From the NCBI GenBank assembly GCA_963663235.2, contig CAXXNO010000009.1, positions 1 to 64,000 of the forward strand: a stretch of DNA of 64,000 nucleotides. The letters run 5' to 3'. This document shows positions 10,311 through 14,802 of the stretch, in pieces. The first letter of the stretch is position 1. Every line of letters begins with the position of its first letter. A model generated the notes under the pieces. The model was not told the DNA's origin. It ran no database searches and worked only from the letters and a program-made list of their open reading frames with translations. This DNA is from Dehalococcoidia bacterium. Its GTDB lineage: Bacteria > Chloroflexota > Dehalococcoidia > Bin125. Both the position numbers and the translations under genes were made by a program.

Positions 10311-13300
10311 CTACGGGCAGCCCGCGCCCGTGTGGAATGTCCAGGCGAAATACACGGGCTGGGTCCCCGCGGGGATAGCGAAGCCGAAGAGGGAGACCGT
10401 CCACACGCCCGGCTGCAGCGGCCCCCGCACCGTGGCGCGTTCCCACACGGACGGCCCCGAGTCGGCGGTGCTCTGCGCCACGCCGCTGGGGTCAACGATC
10501 GAAAAATCCACGTCCGAATGCGCCAGGCCCGCATCCTCCGGCCACCAGATCGTCGCGTCGAAGTTGCACGCGTCCGTCGGCACCGCGACGGCCACATTCA
10601 CCCGCTGCGAGTCCACCAGCGGGTCGACGGTGCCCCAGCCCGCCCAGCCGTTCAGCGGCGCGACCGGCCGTCCGGCCCCCTGAAGATTCAGCGCCGCCTG
10701 TGCGCCCGTCCGACCGTTCCAGCCCGCCCCTTCCCAGGCGGTGTTGTTGGGCGCGGAGTTGAGCAGGTACGCGTACACGTGCCCCGCACAGACGCGCCGC
10801 GCTCCGGGCGCCGCCGACGTCAGAGCGCCCGACGGTGACGATGGGCCCTGCCGCGTGGGGCACCCGTTGAACAGCGGGGAGGGAACTGCGGCCTGCATCC
10901 AGTTGTGATAGAGCATCGCCAGCGCGGCGATGGTCGGAGCCGCGGCGCTGGTCCCGTTGAATCCCGGCCAAGCCCAGGTCGCGGCCGTGCCCCACGAACT
11001 CGCCGCCTCGATGTTCGTGTAGCCCAGGATGTCCGGTTTCAGCCGCAGATCGGGCGTGGGTCCGCGGCTGGAGTAGGCGCACAGCCCGCTCGGCGGCGCG
11101 TAGGAGCGGCCGTTGTCCGGGCAGTTGCCCAGCACGTTCCAGGCGCCCACCGCGATGACCTTGTGCGCCTCAGCCGGAGAGCCGACGCTACCGAAGGCCG
11201 GCTCCGCGCCGGGAATGGGGTGGTGACAGTCCCCGTCGCCGGCCGGTCCCGTGCCCAGCGGGTCCGGGCCGCCCTGCCCGTCCGTGTGGCACGCATCGTT
11301 CCCGCTCGACGCGATCACCACCGCGCCCACGTCGAAGGCGTTGTCCATCAAGGTCGCCGTGGCCGAGGCCGGGTTCTGCAAGAACGCCGTCCACGAGTTC
11401 GAGACCACGCTGTCGAAGCTGGCCACCGCTTTCTGCACGGCCCGGATGACGGCGGCGGTGCGAAATTGGCAGCCGCTATCGACGGCCTTCCAGCTGTCGG
11501 TGGTGATCGGCGTGATCCCGCGCAGCTCCGGCCCGCGGTTCGCGTTGCCGCTGATGATTCCTATCGCCGGCGTGCCGTGATTCGCGCAGTCCCCCGGGTT
11601 GTAGTTCGGCGTCCCCACCACGGTGCCGTTGGGCGCGCGGCCGCTGCCCCAGCAGTCCGCTCCCCCGTGCGCGCAGTCGCCTGTCCATCGATCGGGATAG
11701 TCTCTGAGCAGTCGATGCCCGGCTCGCATGCCAGTCCCGACCACACCGATGTAGCCGCCGTTCAACCCCAGCGCGGCATACGGATCGCTGTTGAACGCCG
11801 CCCGCACCAGGATCGGCTCGTCGCCCCGTCTGCCGTTTGGACCGTTGGGGCCCGCCCTCTGCCCGGGGACGATCTCCCCTTCGTTCAGTTGGATGAAGAG
11901 CACGCTTGGGTGCTGGGCGATCTCAGGCACCAAGCGCAGCGGCGCCTCCACCAGCGCCGCGTTGATGAGCCAGAAGGTTTCCAGCAACGTGATCTCCTGG
12001 CTGCCGAAACTGGCGAGGAACGCGTTCACGGATTCCTCTCGCGCTCCCGTGAGCTCGGCGACCAATCGCTCCACCTCCGCGAAGTCCGCCGGCCGCTGCC
12101 CGCTGTCTAGGGCGTCGCGTCGCGTGCCCATCGGCAGCGCCGGAAAGAGCGGCAGCAGCAGCGGATCCACGAGGTTAATCACGAGGGTCTCGGCGACGTT
12201 GCCCAATTGCTGGGGATCGTCCCCGATTCTCTCGCGCAGCAGGGGCGAGATCTTGGACGGCTCGGTGGCGGCGGCGGATGCGCCCTTGAAGCGCTCGGGC
12301 GTCACATCGTTCTCGACGCTCATGCTCAGAGGCCGGAAGTCTCCGGAGCGCGCTTTATCATCGATGCTCACCTGCACCCCCACGAGGCCCCCCCCGCCCT
12401 CCACGTCGGCCGCGCTCGCGGCCGTGTAGGCGGCGTCGCGGAACTGCGTCATCTGACCGAACCGTGACCACAATCGCACCCAGATTGGGCTGCCGTCGGT
12501 CGGGAGGCCGGCCACCGTCGCGAATTGGATGAGACCCTGTGAGCCGGAGAAGAGGTCGGTGGCTCCCTCCGACGTGCCCACATGCAGCGAGAACTGGTCC
12601 ACGCCGATACCGGCGCTCCACGTGAACGTGACCCTTGCGCCGGGCAGCGTGGAACCGGGCTCGGGGCTTGTGATCTCGGCCGGGATCGCCACCACAGGGC
12701 CGCCCGCTGCCGTATAGATGAAGTCGCGGAACTCCTATCGCGCGCCGAAGAAGGTAAACAGGCGCACGAACACTGGGCCGCCGGTGGTGGGGAGGCCGCC
12801 CACACTCGCGGCCAGGCTGAGACTCTGCGAGGCGGAGAAGATCTCGTCGCCGCCGGGCGACGTCCCCACACGGAGCAAGTACCCGTTGGCGCCGCTGCCG
12901 GCGCTCCACGTAAACGTCACGGTGCCACTGGTCAGCGTGGAGCCCGGCTCGGGGCTCGTGATCTCCGCCTGGCTTTGCTCGGCCGTGGGAATCCTTACGG
13001 TGTAGGCGGCGTCGCGGAACTCCCACTCCTCCCCGAACCGGGACCATACGCGCGCCCACACGGGACTGCCGTCCGTAGGCAGGCCCCTTAGGTGGAGGAC
13101 GCGGTTGAGACCCTGCGAGGCGGAGAAAATGTCGTTGCTCGCCTGCGACGTGCCGATATCGAGCCAGTATTCGTCGACGCCGCTGCCCGCGCTCCAGCTC
13201 AACCGAATCGAGCCGCTGGTCAGCGTCGAGTCCGGTGGCGGGGCCGTGATCTCCGCGGCGACCCGCTCCTGCGCCGCGGCGGGCGGGGGCGGCGTCCCGC

Positions 13301-13397
13301 TCAGCCCCGCCGCGACGGCGAGGCCAGCGACGATGATCGCGAAGAGCACGGATCGACGCAGACCCGGCCAGGGACGAAGCACCACGACGCCTCGCAT
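10311..13397 (-). pseudogene. Secreted S8 (subtilisin-like) peptidase with three N-terminal ~95-aa repeats, interrupted by an in-frame TAG at 12735..12737
   Basis: ORFs 12735..13397 and 10311..12695 are in the same frame; signal peptide; repeats AEIT(S/A)P.P.STL...GLPT.G.P; NHGT, ASSGND, YSSRGPT, KPDI, GTSAAAP. Confidence 0.8.
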
Positions 13398-13564
13398 TCA
13401 GTAGGCTGCGCGAGCCTACGCGCGGCCTATCAAGGGGTCAATCGACTCGGTCCCTGATGTGCAATGCTCTTCGAAACACCAGAGGGAAGACGCGGACGAC
13501 GCCGGGACACTGCTGGACGTGCCGTGATGGGCGGCAGCCGACGTCACCCTCGTGTCATCCCACC

Positions 13565-13645
13565 CTGGTCACTGGGGGGACAGCATGGAGGAGGAGGTGG
13601 GGGGGGAGATCATGAGCGAGAGCGGACGGGAGCAGCTGAGGGTCG
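13565..13645 (+). repeat. Degenerate copy of an internal segment of the hlyC/corC gene (9814..9892)
   Basis: catggaggagg..gggagatcatgagcgagagcgg(a/g)cgggagcagctg shared between the two sites. Confidence 0.85.
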
Positions 13646-13738
13646 TTTGCCCACGCGGCGGCCGGTTGCGATAATCGGAGGGGGCTGGACTCGCTGTTCC
13701 CGCGTGTACGGGGCGGCGCGCCCACTCCGACGGTGGAC

Positions 13739-13827
13739 GCCGAAGTGGCGGAACTGGTAGACGCGACAGTCTCAAACACTGTTGGGGGGAAATCCCCGTG
13801 CCGGTTCGAGTCCGGCCTTCGGCACCA
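13739..13827 (+). tRNA. tRNA-Leu(CAA)
   Basis: GCCGAAG stem, ACAGT-CT-CAA-AC-ACTGT, long variable arm, CCA end. Confidence 0.96.
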
Positions 13828-13854
13828 GAGTCGATCCCGACAGGACAGAAGCGT

Positions 13855-13928
13855 TGCCGAGTAGTGTAACGGTAGCACGCGGGACTTTGAATCCCCCAGT
13901 TCAGGTTCGAACCCTGGCTCGGCAGCCA
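13855..13928 (+). tRNA. tRNA-Gln(TTG)
   Basis: TGCCGAG/CTCGGCA stem, GGGA-CT-TTG-AA-TCCC, GTTCGAAC, CCA end. Confidence 0.94.
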
Positions 13929-13943
13929 CGCTGTCCTGGACTC

Positions 13944-14019
13944 TCCCCGGTAGCTCAATTGGTAGAGCGGGCGGCTGTTAACCGCTAGGTTGTAGGTTCG
14001 AGTCCTGCCCGGGGAGCCA
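13944..14019 (+). tRNA. tRNA-Asn(GTT)
   Basis: TCCCCGG stem, GCGG-CT-GTT-AA-CCGC, GTTCGAGTC, CCA end. Confidence 0.96.
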
Positions 14020-14027
14020 ACATTCGG

Positions 14028-14123
14028 CGGCCAGAGAGGGAGCGTTAGAGCGGGTCCTTCCGCGGCTGCGCCGGGGAAGGACTCAGCGCTCGGTTGTCGG
14101 TGCGAGTCCTGCCCGGGGAGCCA
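14028..14123 (+). repeat. tRNA-Asn-derived repeat unit 1 (hairpin replaces anticodon arm)
   Basis: tagagcggg-tccttccgcggctgcgccggggaagga-...-gagtcctgcccggggagcca. Confidence 0.9.
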
Positions 14124-14130
14124 CCATGCG

Positions 14131-14226
14131 CCGGCCCGAGGGGGAGTGGTAGAGCGGGTCCTTCCGCGGCTGCGCCGGGAAGGATTCACCGCGCGGTTGT
14201 CGGTTCGAGTCCTGCCCGGGGAGCCA
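14131..14226 (+). repeat. tRNA-Asn-derived repeat unit 2
   Basis: ggtagagcggg-tccttccgcggctgcgccgggaagga-ttcaccgc-..-ggttcgagtcctgcccggggagcca. Confidence 0.9.
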
Positions 14227-14244
14227 AGATTCGCTGGTACACGC

Positions 14245-14499
14245 ATATTCTGGGTCTATGTCCTCCGGAACCCAGAGGGGCAGCTCTACATCGGCCATAC
14301 CGCCGACTTGGAACGCCGCGTGCAGCAGCACCGGGATGGGGCGGCTCGCTGGACGCGCCACCGCGGGCCGTGGGAGTTGGTCCATCACGAGCAGTACGCA
14401 ACGCGCGCGGCTGCCATGCGACGCGAGCGCGCGTTGAAGCGGGGGCGCGCGAACACGTGGCTTCGCGCGCGATACGGCCGGCCAGAGGGGAAGCGGTAG
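14245..14499 (+). CDS. Small stand-alone GIY-YIG nuclease; the expected start codon reads ATA
   Basis: FWVYVLRN...LYIGHTADLERRVQQH..G.ARWT..RGPWELVHHE...AMRRERALK; its TAG stop lies inside repeat unit 3. Confidence 0.88.
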   Translation: MFWVYVLRNPEGQLYIGHTADLERRVQQHRDGAARWTRHRGPWELVHHEQYATRAAAMRRERALKRGRANTWLRARYGRPEGKR

Positions 14500-14573
14500 A
14501 GCGGGTCCTTCCGCGGCTGCGCCGGGAAGGATTCACCGCTCGGTTGTCGGTGCGTGTCCTGCCCGGGGAGCCA
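14478..14573 (+). repeat. tRNA-Asn-derived repeat unit 3
   Basis: ggtagagcggg-tccttccgcggctgcgccgggaagga-ttcaccgctcggttgtcgg..gtcctgcccggggagcca. Confidence 0.9.
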
Positions 14574-14700
14574 CACTACAAAATCGGCCCTGGAACCGCT
14601 CCTCGCGGTCGGCGAGGAAGAGGTCGCGGTACGCGCGCTTAGGGCGGATCGCGGTCACGTACCGATCCCGCACGGTCACCCGGTCGAAGACGGCAAGGGC
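14533..14700 (-). pseudogene. Possible C-terminal remnant of a large serine recombinase reading into the tRNA-like att sequence
   Basis: AVFDRVTVRDRYVTAIRPKRAYRDLF...VAPRAG resembles recombinase C-termini that overlap tRNA att sites; no catalytic domain present. Confidence 0.4.
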
Positions 14701-14802
14701 CGACGCGCCGTCCAGGTGAGGCGGCCGGAATGGCAGCATCTACCATGCGTGGACGCGATCATCGCGGACGCGACCAAAGCGTGAGAACGGAAAGCGACGA
14801 CG

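Follow-up and report, generated by a model that had tools for sequence, protein, structure and literature searches.

The window analysed here is a stretch of 64,000 nucleotides from a Dehalococcoidia bacterium of the Chloroflexota (assembly GCA_963663235.2, contig CAXXNO010000009.1, positions 1 to 64,000 of the forward strand). Directly behind an intact tRNA-Asn gene, it carries a gene encoding a small GIY-YIG nuclease and three partial copies of this tRNA gene, all plugged by the same hairpin. This locus is very probably a member of a conserved family of GIY-YIG/hairpin cassettes residing at tRNA genes. Each cassette is made of a GIY-YIG nuclease of ~85 amino acids, an adjoining intact tRNA gene on the same strand and one or more partial copies of this tRNA carrying a perfect hairpin typical of the lineage; the nuclease clades group by hairpin type and by tRNA type. 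According to the wider reading that we favour, with somewhat more confidence than doubt, the locus is a probably ageing member of a selfish cassette family, which is widespread and occupies tRNA genes by a homing-type mechanism. The family is apparently undescribed in the literature: a full-text search, which reached mostly abstracts and had subscription journals outside its scope, found no work in which bacterial GIY-YIG genes are connected with both fragments of tRNA genes and hairpins. New in the present analysis are the type-specific way in which the hairpin is scattered in genomes, the count over a whole class and a case from Chloroflexota with the tRNA upstream of the open reading frame (ORF) and with units devoid of ORF.

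The components of the locus are given below, followed by the two tRNA genes that precede it. G000 is the genome that carries the locus under study; the other G and L codes refer to compared genomes and loci.

13944-14019, + strand: intact tRNA-Asn(GTT), anchor of the cassette (ARAGORN; Rfam, 68.8 bits)
14027-14123, + strand: unit 1, ORF-less; remains of the final GIY-YIG codons, GTTAGAGCGGG, hairpin at 14055-14081, tRNA-Asn 3' part to CCA
14130-14226, + strand: unit 2, without ORF; built as unit 1 but with GGTAGAGCGGG; hairpin at 14159-14184
14242-14499, + strand: GIY-YIG nuclease ORF, ~85 amino acids, catalytic domain only (Pfam PF01541)
14477-14573, + strand: unit 3, overlapping the end of the ORF; GGTAGAGCGGG at 14495-14505, hairpin at 14506-14531, tRNA-Asn 3' part to CCA
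13739-13827, + strand: tRNA-Leu(CAA) (ARAGORN, Rfam), context outside the cassette
13855-13928, + strand: tRNA-Gln(TTG) (ARAGORN, Rfam), context outside the cassette

The tRNA genes were called by ARAGORN and by the Rfam tRNA model (RF00005), the latter run at E<=1 on positions 13500-14800. The three true tRNAs obtain Rfam scores of 57-69 bits, and tRNA-Asn is single-copy, being one among the 46 tRNA genes of the whole assembly. The repeat search revealed three 97-nt direct repeats directly behind it. A search of its own genome with unit 2 retrieves the two remaining units at identities of 91% and 94% (E 2e-31 and 3.7e-37), and this genome (2.75 Mb in 14 contigs, 68.4% G+C) contains neither further units nor a second nuclease gene. 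A preliminary description, made from the letters of the window, had reported an intact tRNA-Asn followed by three ~96-bp repeats running from the D loop to CCA; these repeats are real and extend one base further on the left. All units have the same order: last nuclease codons, GGTAGAGCGGG (replaced by GTTAGAGCGGG in unit 1), hairpin, TTCACCGCT, variable loop, T arm, 3' strand of the acceptor and CCA. The segment GGTAGAGCGGG corresponds to the D loop and the 3' part of the D stem of the tRNA. The hairpin reads TCCTTCC-g-CGGC-tgc-GCCG-GGAAGGA and, alone as DNA, folds at -14.9 kcal/mol (z -2.55). The preliminary description had the anticodon arm replaced by it. The hairpin is indeed common to the three units, but it stands in for CGGCTG only (tRNA positions 29-34), and the anticodon loop and stem keep their 3' half (TTCACCGCT versus TTAACCGCT in the tRNA).

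The units also differ from the tRNA in their T arm. The T stem is GTCGG in all three units versus GTAGG in the tRNA, which leaves a C-U mismatch (GTCGG against CCTGC), and the T-loop box is TGCGA in units 1 and 3 versus TTCGA in the tRNA. When the units (14027-14573) are compared to the corresponding part of the tRNA (13978-14019), five of the eight kinds of differences are A>C or T>G. The successive CCA ends are followed by similar spacers of 7 nt (ACATTCG, CCATGCG and AGATTCG), so that the repeating module is made of the spacer, the ORF when present and the unit. Units 1 and 2 thus look like modules that lack ~250 nt of ORF. The idea that they are collapsed copies of the module, already put forward in the preliminary description, agrees with the remnants of the last ORF codons held by these 97-nt repeats and with the same layout in another genome, G280.

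The array is not a quirk of one assembly, because runs belonging to four studies yield short Logan contigs that together cover each of its junctions. The junction between the tRNA and unit 1 is covered by run X1 (13990-14070, with 30 letters only on the tRNA side), the junction between units 1 and 2 by contigs from X1, X2 and X4, the stretch leading from unit 2 across the entire ORF to unit 3 by contigs from X1, X4 and X8, and the passage from unit 3 into the flank by contigs from all four. This cover is made of several short contigs, none of which spans the array, and the assembly itself may derive from one of these runs. Run X8 leaves positions 14028-14150 uncovered, and only 0.07 of the words are present in the RNA run X20; no weight is given to either observation.

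The ORF located between units 2 and 3 encodes a GIY-YIG domain, as first described: residues 35-99 of the 117-residue frame match PF01541 with 54.6 bits (cut-off 22.6; E 1.4e-14), and its TAG stop (14497-14499) falls within the tRNA-derived GGTAG. The conserved N-terminus of the nuclease, FWVYVLRN, begins at ~14248. Hallmarks of GIY-YIG domains are the two tyrosines of the GIY and YIG motifs, an arginine and a glutamate, on a fold with a three-stranded sheet and helices. In the alignment with 23 relatives, Y16, G18, R26, H30 and E62 are invariant and Y6 is almost so, and the present protein is intact at its catalytic positions. The AlphaFold model (predicted local distance difference test, pLDDT, 86.2) adopts a GIY-YIG fold with strands at 3-9, 15-20 and 45-52 plus helices; the solved structures closest to it in fold are 1zg2, SLX1 and HIGLE. 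In the same way, the family profile A2 retrieves from the PDB the UPF0213 protein BH0048 (1zg2; 5.9e-17) and EF2693 (1ywl; 1.4e-14), then SLX1 domains (5e-8 to 2e-6) and, more weakly, I-TevI (3.8e-4). By its closest relatives in sequence and in predicted fold, the nuclease thus appears to belong to the UPF0213/SLX1-like branch. It has no extra DNA-binding domain, the ORF stopping ~20 residues past the catalytic glutamate. NCBIfam gives below-threshold matches only, such as TIGR01453 (group I intron endonuclease; 17.2 bits versus a cut-off of 56), and a literature search for YhbQ/UPF0213 combined with GIY-YIG returned no paper.

Comparison with other genomes shows that the association of nuclease, tRNA and hairpin is not specific to this locus. 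A first pass with the present protein as query detected a small GIY-YIG gene in 28 of 60 relatives; two of the 29 loci were near a tRNA, both being overlapping views of one site of G037. This site shows, in order, a 5' tRNA-Ala fragment with the hairpin GTCGCC-cag-GCGAC, an intact tRNA-Ala(GGC), an ORF, a unit, a second, frameshifted ORF and a repeat of that unit, which is made of GAGAGCA, the hairpin and the 3' part of tRNA-Ala to CCA. In G060, two ORFs surround tRNA-Val(GAC). One of them ends within the intact tRNA, in a TAG at its positions 8-10; the other has its end in GGTTAG, within a tRNA fragment whose anticodon and T arms are replaced by CCCGAT-type hairpins. Profile A1, built from four proteins of these three genomes (the present one, G037 and G060), matches at E<=1e-8 in 130 of the 301 genomes of the class.

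The 30 best loci contain 33 ORF copies, the three genomes behind the profile contributing five of them. A tRNA gene lies on the same strand within 483 nt of every one of the 33. The tRNA is tRNA-Asn for 13 copies, followed by Val, Ile, Ala, Trp, Met and Ser. Examination by eye places 32 of the 33 copies beside fragments of that very tRNA carrying a perfect hairpin of 5-8 bp. Of the 33 ORFs, 22 have the intact tRNA on their upstream side, as in the present locus, and 11 on their downstream side. Further down the ranking, the following 40 matches (E 5.5e-20 to 3.8e-14) include only eight with a tRNA on the same strand within 700 nt, the chance rate, roughly estimated from 46 tRNA genes in 2.75 Mb, being ~1%; set against the 33 of 33 at the top, this indicates that the tRNA-linked proteins form a distinct, top-ranking subfamily.

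Cassettes are also found beyond this class. A tblastn search against contigs of one genome per species gave 31 loci, and four of the five best E-values correspond to cassettes in metagenome-assembled genomes (MAGs) labelled Anaerolineaceae, Acidiferrales, Pseudomonadales and Lloydbacteria; a weaker match in an Opitutales MAG, at tRNA-Asn, is a cassette too. The Anaerolineaceae cassette lies at a tRNA-Asn, encodes a protein with 64% identity and carries the same TCCTTCC hairpin at a different position of the fragment. The others are associated with tRNA-Arg (Acidiferrales) or tRNA-Lys (Pseudomonadales and Lloydbacteria). The remaining 26 of the 31 loci have no tRNA on the same strand within 500 nt. 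The preliminary description had suggested that the element is small and selfish, is tied to a tRNA and amplifies in tandem without an integrase of its own; if nuclease, tRNA fragment and hairpin were not found conserved together in other genomes, this was to speak against the proposal. All 33 top ORF copies show the association, as do MAGs labelled as belonging to four other phyla, which supports the proposal.

The phylogeny of 37 ORFs places the present protein in a clade of seven, all with tRNA-Asn and TCCTTC hairpins (support 94/89). Hairpin labels require 12 changes on this tree (mean of 24.3 after shuffling) and tRNA labels 13, while the layout, which requires seven, flips within clades. 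Across relatives, the hairpin sits in the D loop, the anticodon arm, the variable region or the T arm, and the fragments are 5' or 3' parts of the tRNA. The end of the ORF always adjoins tRNA sequence. In the Asn clade, it adjoins GGTAGAGC, the D-loop GG (positions 18-19) of the displaced fragment, a boundary seen in the present locus, L064, L072, L073, L076, L078-L080 and G280. In young-looking copies, the fragment past the hairpin is identical to the local tRNA. Tandem modules or fragments devoid of ORF occur here and in G037, G310, G280, L065, L066, L068, L071, L078, L086 and L118; since runs of N break apparent further tandem ORF copies in L066, L068 and L118, the copy numbers in these three are lower bounds. 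Contig C4 of G280 has a layout very like that of the present locus (three ORF-less units, an ORF and a unit), with no intact tRNA within its 3.8 kb. Common descent of the derived changes shared by the present units and G280 (TTCACCGCT, GTCGG/GCCGG) was considered and is weakened, most of them being A>C or T>G. Three of the 33 ORFs are broken, by an internal stop in L085 and L087 and by a frameshifted end in the second G037 copy.

Empty sites are common among close kin: 10 of 11 same-family relatives have a tRNA-Asn free of cassette. The Leu-Gln-Asn tRNA cluster is kept in relatives both with and without the cassette. Behind the tRNA-Asn of G003 lies a decayed remnant, GAGCGGG-TCCTTCC-tgc-GGAAGGA-TTTAGCGCG. 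As there is no synteny downstream of tRNA-Asn among same-family relatives, the exact borders of the insertion cannot be read from these empty sites.

The L068 locus (G142) shows a particular arrangement. One of its units has segments of both the anticodon arm and the T arm replaced by the same hairpin, and the next unit resembles a deletion between these two hairpins; relative to the ORF match, they are placed ~300 nt upstream and immediately after. This deletion-like unit suggests that hairpin copies recombine with each other.

The hairpin is not confined to the cassettes. A BLAST search with unit 2 overlooked the short scattered hairpins, which were revealed by a pattern search alone; sites of the stem were counted in each genome and compared to a reversed-pattern control. 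In G000, the 7-nt stem TCCTTCC..GGAAGGA occurs at 15 sites versus none in the control, 12 of them outside the locus, and the 6-nt stem TCCTTC..GAAGGA at 22 versus 5. For the 6-nt stem, the counts reach 52 versus 2 in G142, 130 versus 9 in G233, 170 versus 8 in G071, 103 versus 1 in G003, which holds the remnant, and 37 versus 10 in G280. Nine same-family genomes without cassette have 0-4 sites (control 0-9), and genomes with cassettes of other types have 0-8 TCCTTC sites (control 1-14). Altogether, the counts are flat in 22 of the 23 genomes without a known TCCTTC-type cassette. For the TCCGCC type, none of 20 other genomes reaches a threefold enrichment with a sizeable count (G142 being at 13 versus 4). 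The link between the type of cassette and the type of scattered hairpin is thus real but imperfect, and rests on related genomes.

The scattered copies of G000 form the core of a family of 13 perfect palindromes of ~34 nt, CTCTCCA-TCCTTCCC-nnnn-GGGAAGGA-TGGAGAG. They are located on contigs C6 (126838-150544, with six copies within 24 kb, and 341395), C11 (136712) and C12 (106188, 128698, 364734 and 374391), and often adjoin CCTCACCCCC-type repeats. The possibility that scattered hairpins sit, as a general rule, in the loops of larger palindromes was rejected: this is the case for 3 of 31 sites in G071, versus a mean of 1.8 after permutation of the flanks. In G000, 13 of 18 sites do lie within larger palindromes, but these belong to one repeat family, for which the control is uninformative.

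The anatomy of the cassettes suggests the following scenario as the most likely one. The nuclease would cut the DNA of the tRNA gene at or near the position where the hairpin will later stand, here tRNA positions 29-34. The break would be repaired by homologous recombination from a copy bearing the cassette, with tRNA sequence serving as homology arms on both sides. In this way a working tRNA would be restored and followed by copies of the spacer, the ORF, GGTAGAGCGGG and the hairpin, the 3' part of the old tRNA remaining as a displaced fragment. Further modules could come from repeated cutting of the intact tRNA or from unequal recombination between the repeated 3' parts; since the intact tRNA would stay cleavable, repeated rounds or unequal exchange are proposed to build the arrays. 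Later deletions would strip ORFs and leave ORF-less units, giving the present array. The hairpin might be a plug that destroys the cleavage site in the spare copy, a binding site of the nuclease as in the Ssn/NTS system presented below, or both. Furthermore, the position beside a single-copy essential tRNA would shield the cassette from deletion.

Two known systems offer parallels. The mORFs of fungal mitochondria (Allomyces atp6; Glomus atp6, atp9, cox2 and nad3) bring a replacement gene end and push the native end downstream (PMC3630166). Like the present cassette, they combine a free-standing ORF encoding a homing-type endonuclease (of the GIY-YIG family in Glomus atp9), located behind a working copy of the target gene, with a displaced duplicate of the gene end downstream of the ORF, the function of the gene being kept (PMC3630166). 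Unlike mORFs, the present family targets a bacterial tRNA gene, encodes a nuclease of ~85 amino acids and has a displaced copy with a lineage-specific hairpin. It also shows frequent tandem arrays, ORF-less units and both 5' and 3' layouts, and homing is in its case deduced. The second parallel is SegB of phages T4 and T6, a free-standing GIY-YIG homing endonuclease encoded in a tRNA cluster, like the present gene, which lies among tRNA genes. The SegB protein makes its cuts within tRNA genes and, in phage T6, drives the recombination-dependent tandem amplification of a segment containing itself and a tRNA (PMC13096335). The other strand of its cleavage motif, RAWTSGAAC, looks similar to the T-loop box. 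SegB differs in being a phage protein with a C-terminal part (missing in SegB-short), whereas the present nuclease is chromosomal and limited to the catalytic domain, and the parts of the report considered here describe no hairpin-plugged tRNA fragments (PMC13096335).

Several observations weigh against the selfish-cassette reading. Some concern the nuclease itself. There is no ATG, GTG or TTG near the conserved N-terminus at 14242, a point missed in the preliminary description; the nearest in-frame starts, TTG at 14197 and GTG at 14146, both lie within unit 2. A relative has GTG ACA where the present ORF has GGT ACA, so the start codon may have been lost. With no canonical start at its conserved N-terminus, the nuclease may be inactive in the present copy. 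This copy is probably aged and decaying, as suggested by the missing canonical start codon and by the decay seen in its units. Others concern the scatter of hairpins, which is weak in two genomes with a cassette (5 versus 1 in G169 and 17 versus 9 in G236). G280 was assigned to the TCCTTC type only after its count, and its hairpins cluster around a second GIY-YIG gene. G159 is the exception among genomes without a TCCTTC-type cassette (86 versus 8), both of its GIY-YIG matches being of the tRNA-Ile type; its hairpins may have outlived their nuclease, or a cassette may be missing from the assembly. In the TCCGCC type, only three of six genomes with a cassette are enriched at least threefold (G180, G229 and G152), and the palindromes of G000 have only a 7-8-bp stem in common with the hairpin of the units. 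The compared genomes are kin, and their counts are not independent.

The mechanism raises difficulties too. It is drawn from anatomy; neither cleavage, nor homing, nor a filled and an empty site within one species has been observed. The intact tRNA keeps any target internal to the tRNA, and the selfish-cassette reading does not account for the immunity of the host copy or for its escape from constant cutting; nor does it account for the route by which hairpins reach other sites of the genome. Finally, with 12 versus 13 changes, the tree cannot tell whether it is the hairpin or the tRNA that travels with the protein.

A more speculative variant, to which we give limited credence, is the following. 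The nuclease would break hairpin-prone DNA, tRNA arms foremost and other sites too, and its own hairpin would be written into the repaired site. It is equally tentative that the arms of tRNA genes would be targeted first of all as they are conserved in all bacteria. If true, such a "cut-and-plug" system would account for the varied positions of the hairpin, for its scatter in kin that bear cassettes but not in kin free of them, and for movement across phyla by tRNA homology alone. It would represent a new mode of DNA movement and provide very small nucleases, specific for sequence or structure, with known targets, the hairpin being of 16-26 nt.

The strongest competitor to the selfish-cassette reading, which we nevertheless regard as unlikely, is a domesticated system similar to Ssn, namely a nuclease specific to certain sites in single-stranded DNA, with hairpins spread over the genome, which would modulate DNA uptake or recombination, the vicinity of a tRNA being incidental. 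According to the Ssn paper, SsnA is itself a single-domain GIY-YIG protein of 94 amino acids that binds a single-stranded DNA hairpin repeat (NTS/SRM) and cuts a few nucleotides upstream, and 71% of the homologues of ssnA have such hairpins at their flanks (PMC11893778). The likeness is clear: the present nuclease is also a single GIY-YIG domain of about this size (~90 amino acids), its gene is flanked by its hairpin, and this type of hairpin is scattered in the genomes that bear the cassette. However, the link with tRNA is too regular for chance (33 of 33), and the Ssn paper contains no mention of tRNA (PMC11893778). The present hairpins do not fit the SRM motif, which is absent from both strands of 13900-14650 and has 24 matches in G000 versus 30-52 in three shuffles. 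The scattered copies are tens at most, not hundreds, and only 12-13 in G000; the best solved relatives are UPF0213 and SLX1; and the three broken ORFs among 33 would fit selfish decay. A hairpin that is both flanking and scattered shows a feature of the mode of action and is not proof of membership in Ssn (cd10448). Repeats of the REP/BIME type with RAYT, as well as IS200/IS605 TnpA, likewise pair a small nuclease gene with short palindromes spread over the genome. Both are named in the discussion of the Ssn paper (PMC11893778). They differ from the present family in being Y1/HUH enzymes and in having no scaffold of tRNA fragments.

It appears very improbable that the units function as tRNA-like RNAs, be it as decoys, guides or processing signals, which would end in CCA and derive from the transcript of the tRNA operon. 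They do keep a segment similar to a T arm, the 3' acceptor strand and CCA, they follow three tRNA genes on the strand of the latter, and perfect hairpins of differing sequence are maintained across the family. Nevertheless, the 5' acceptor strand is missing, the T-stem mismatch affects all three units and units 1 and 3 have the altered TGCGA box. ARAGORN finds no tRNA in 14020-14573, and the units obtain no Rfam tRNA match at E<=1, only two chance-level matches to a snoRNA model (22 bits) and to YrlA (19 bits). Their minimum-energy folds are not cloverleaf-like and barely beat shuffled sequences (z -2.2, -1.6 and -0.7). Moreover, the variable place of the hairpin and the mixture of 5' and 3' fragments in relatives are ill-suited to one RNA function, and the differences from the tRNA, mostly A>C and T>G, resemble neutral decay. 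The suggestion of the preliminary description that the units may be CCA-ended mimics acting as decoys or guides is therefore not supported.

Direct repeats of the 3' end of a tRNA are the usual scar of integrases that target tRNA genes. The array might then combine attachment sites left by an integrase island with an unrelated GIY-YIG gene or, the sequence being a metagenome-assembled genome, reflect an artefact of repeat assembly; we find either hardly credible. No integrase or phage gene lies near the locus, the GIY-YIG gene being the sole ORF between the repeats that matches a family. The fragments extend back to the D loop and bear a lineage-specific hairpin, and the link of nuclease and tRNA recurs in 33 of 33 copies. 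The contigs across the junctions argue against an artefact.

Besides the cassettes, a second type of small GIY-YIG gene without link to tRNA, with an end in ...IKRWTRRKKEALI, is present in L029 (G003:C1:1083331-1083531) and L027 (G060:C3). These genes are flanked by a longer hairpin repeat, CCGTTCGTGG-TTCGACAAGCTCA-CCACGAACGG, and look more like classical Ssn-and-repeat pairs. The other neighbours of the present locus are ordinary chromosomal genes, encoding a subtilase, an Ig-domain protein (Big_7), an EamA transporter and a luciferase-like monooxygenase. The first two, of 794 and 220 amino acids, are encoded upstream of the tRNA cluster, on the minus strand of 10311-13397, and have a common repeated N-terminal motif (EITSPEPGSTL..FTWSAG).

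If the selfish-cassette reading is true, the tRNA genes of many bacterial phyla host an undescribed class of very small selfish elements, each consisting of an 85-residue nuclease and a signature hairpin and always leaving one working tRNA. This would explain puzzling fragments of tRNA genes and annotations as "GIY-YIG family protein". The biology of homing endonucleases known from mORFs and SegB would reach bacterial chromosomes and be linked to the newly found pairs of Ssn nuclease and hairpin. The family would also provide dozens of natural pairs of nuclease and target, readable from sequence, for testing the specificity of a bare GIY-YIG domain. As for G000 itself, positions 14020-14573 would be a decaying mobile insert and not functional RNA genes.

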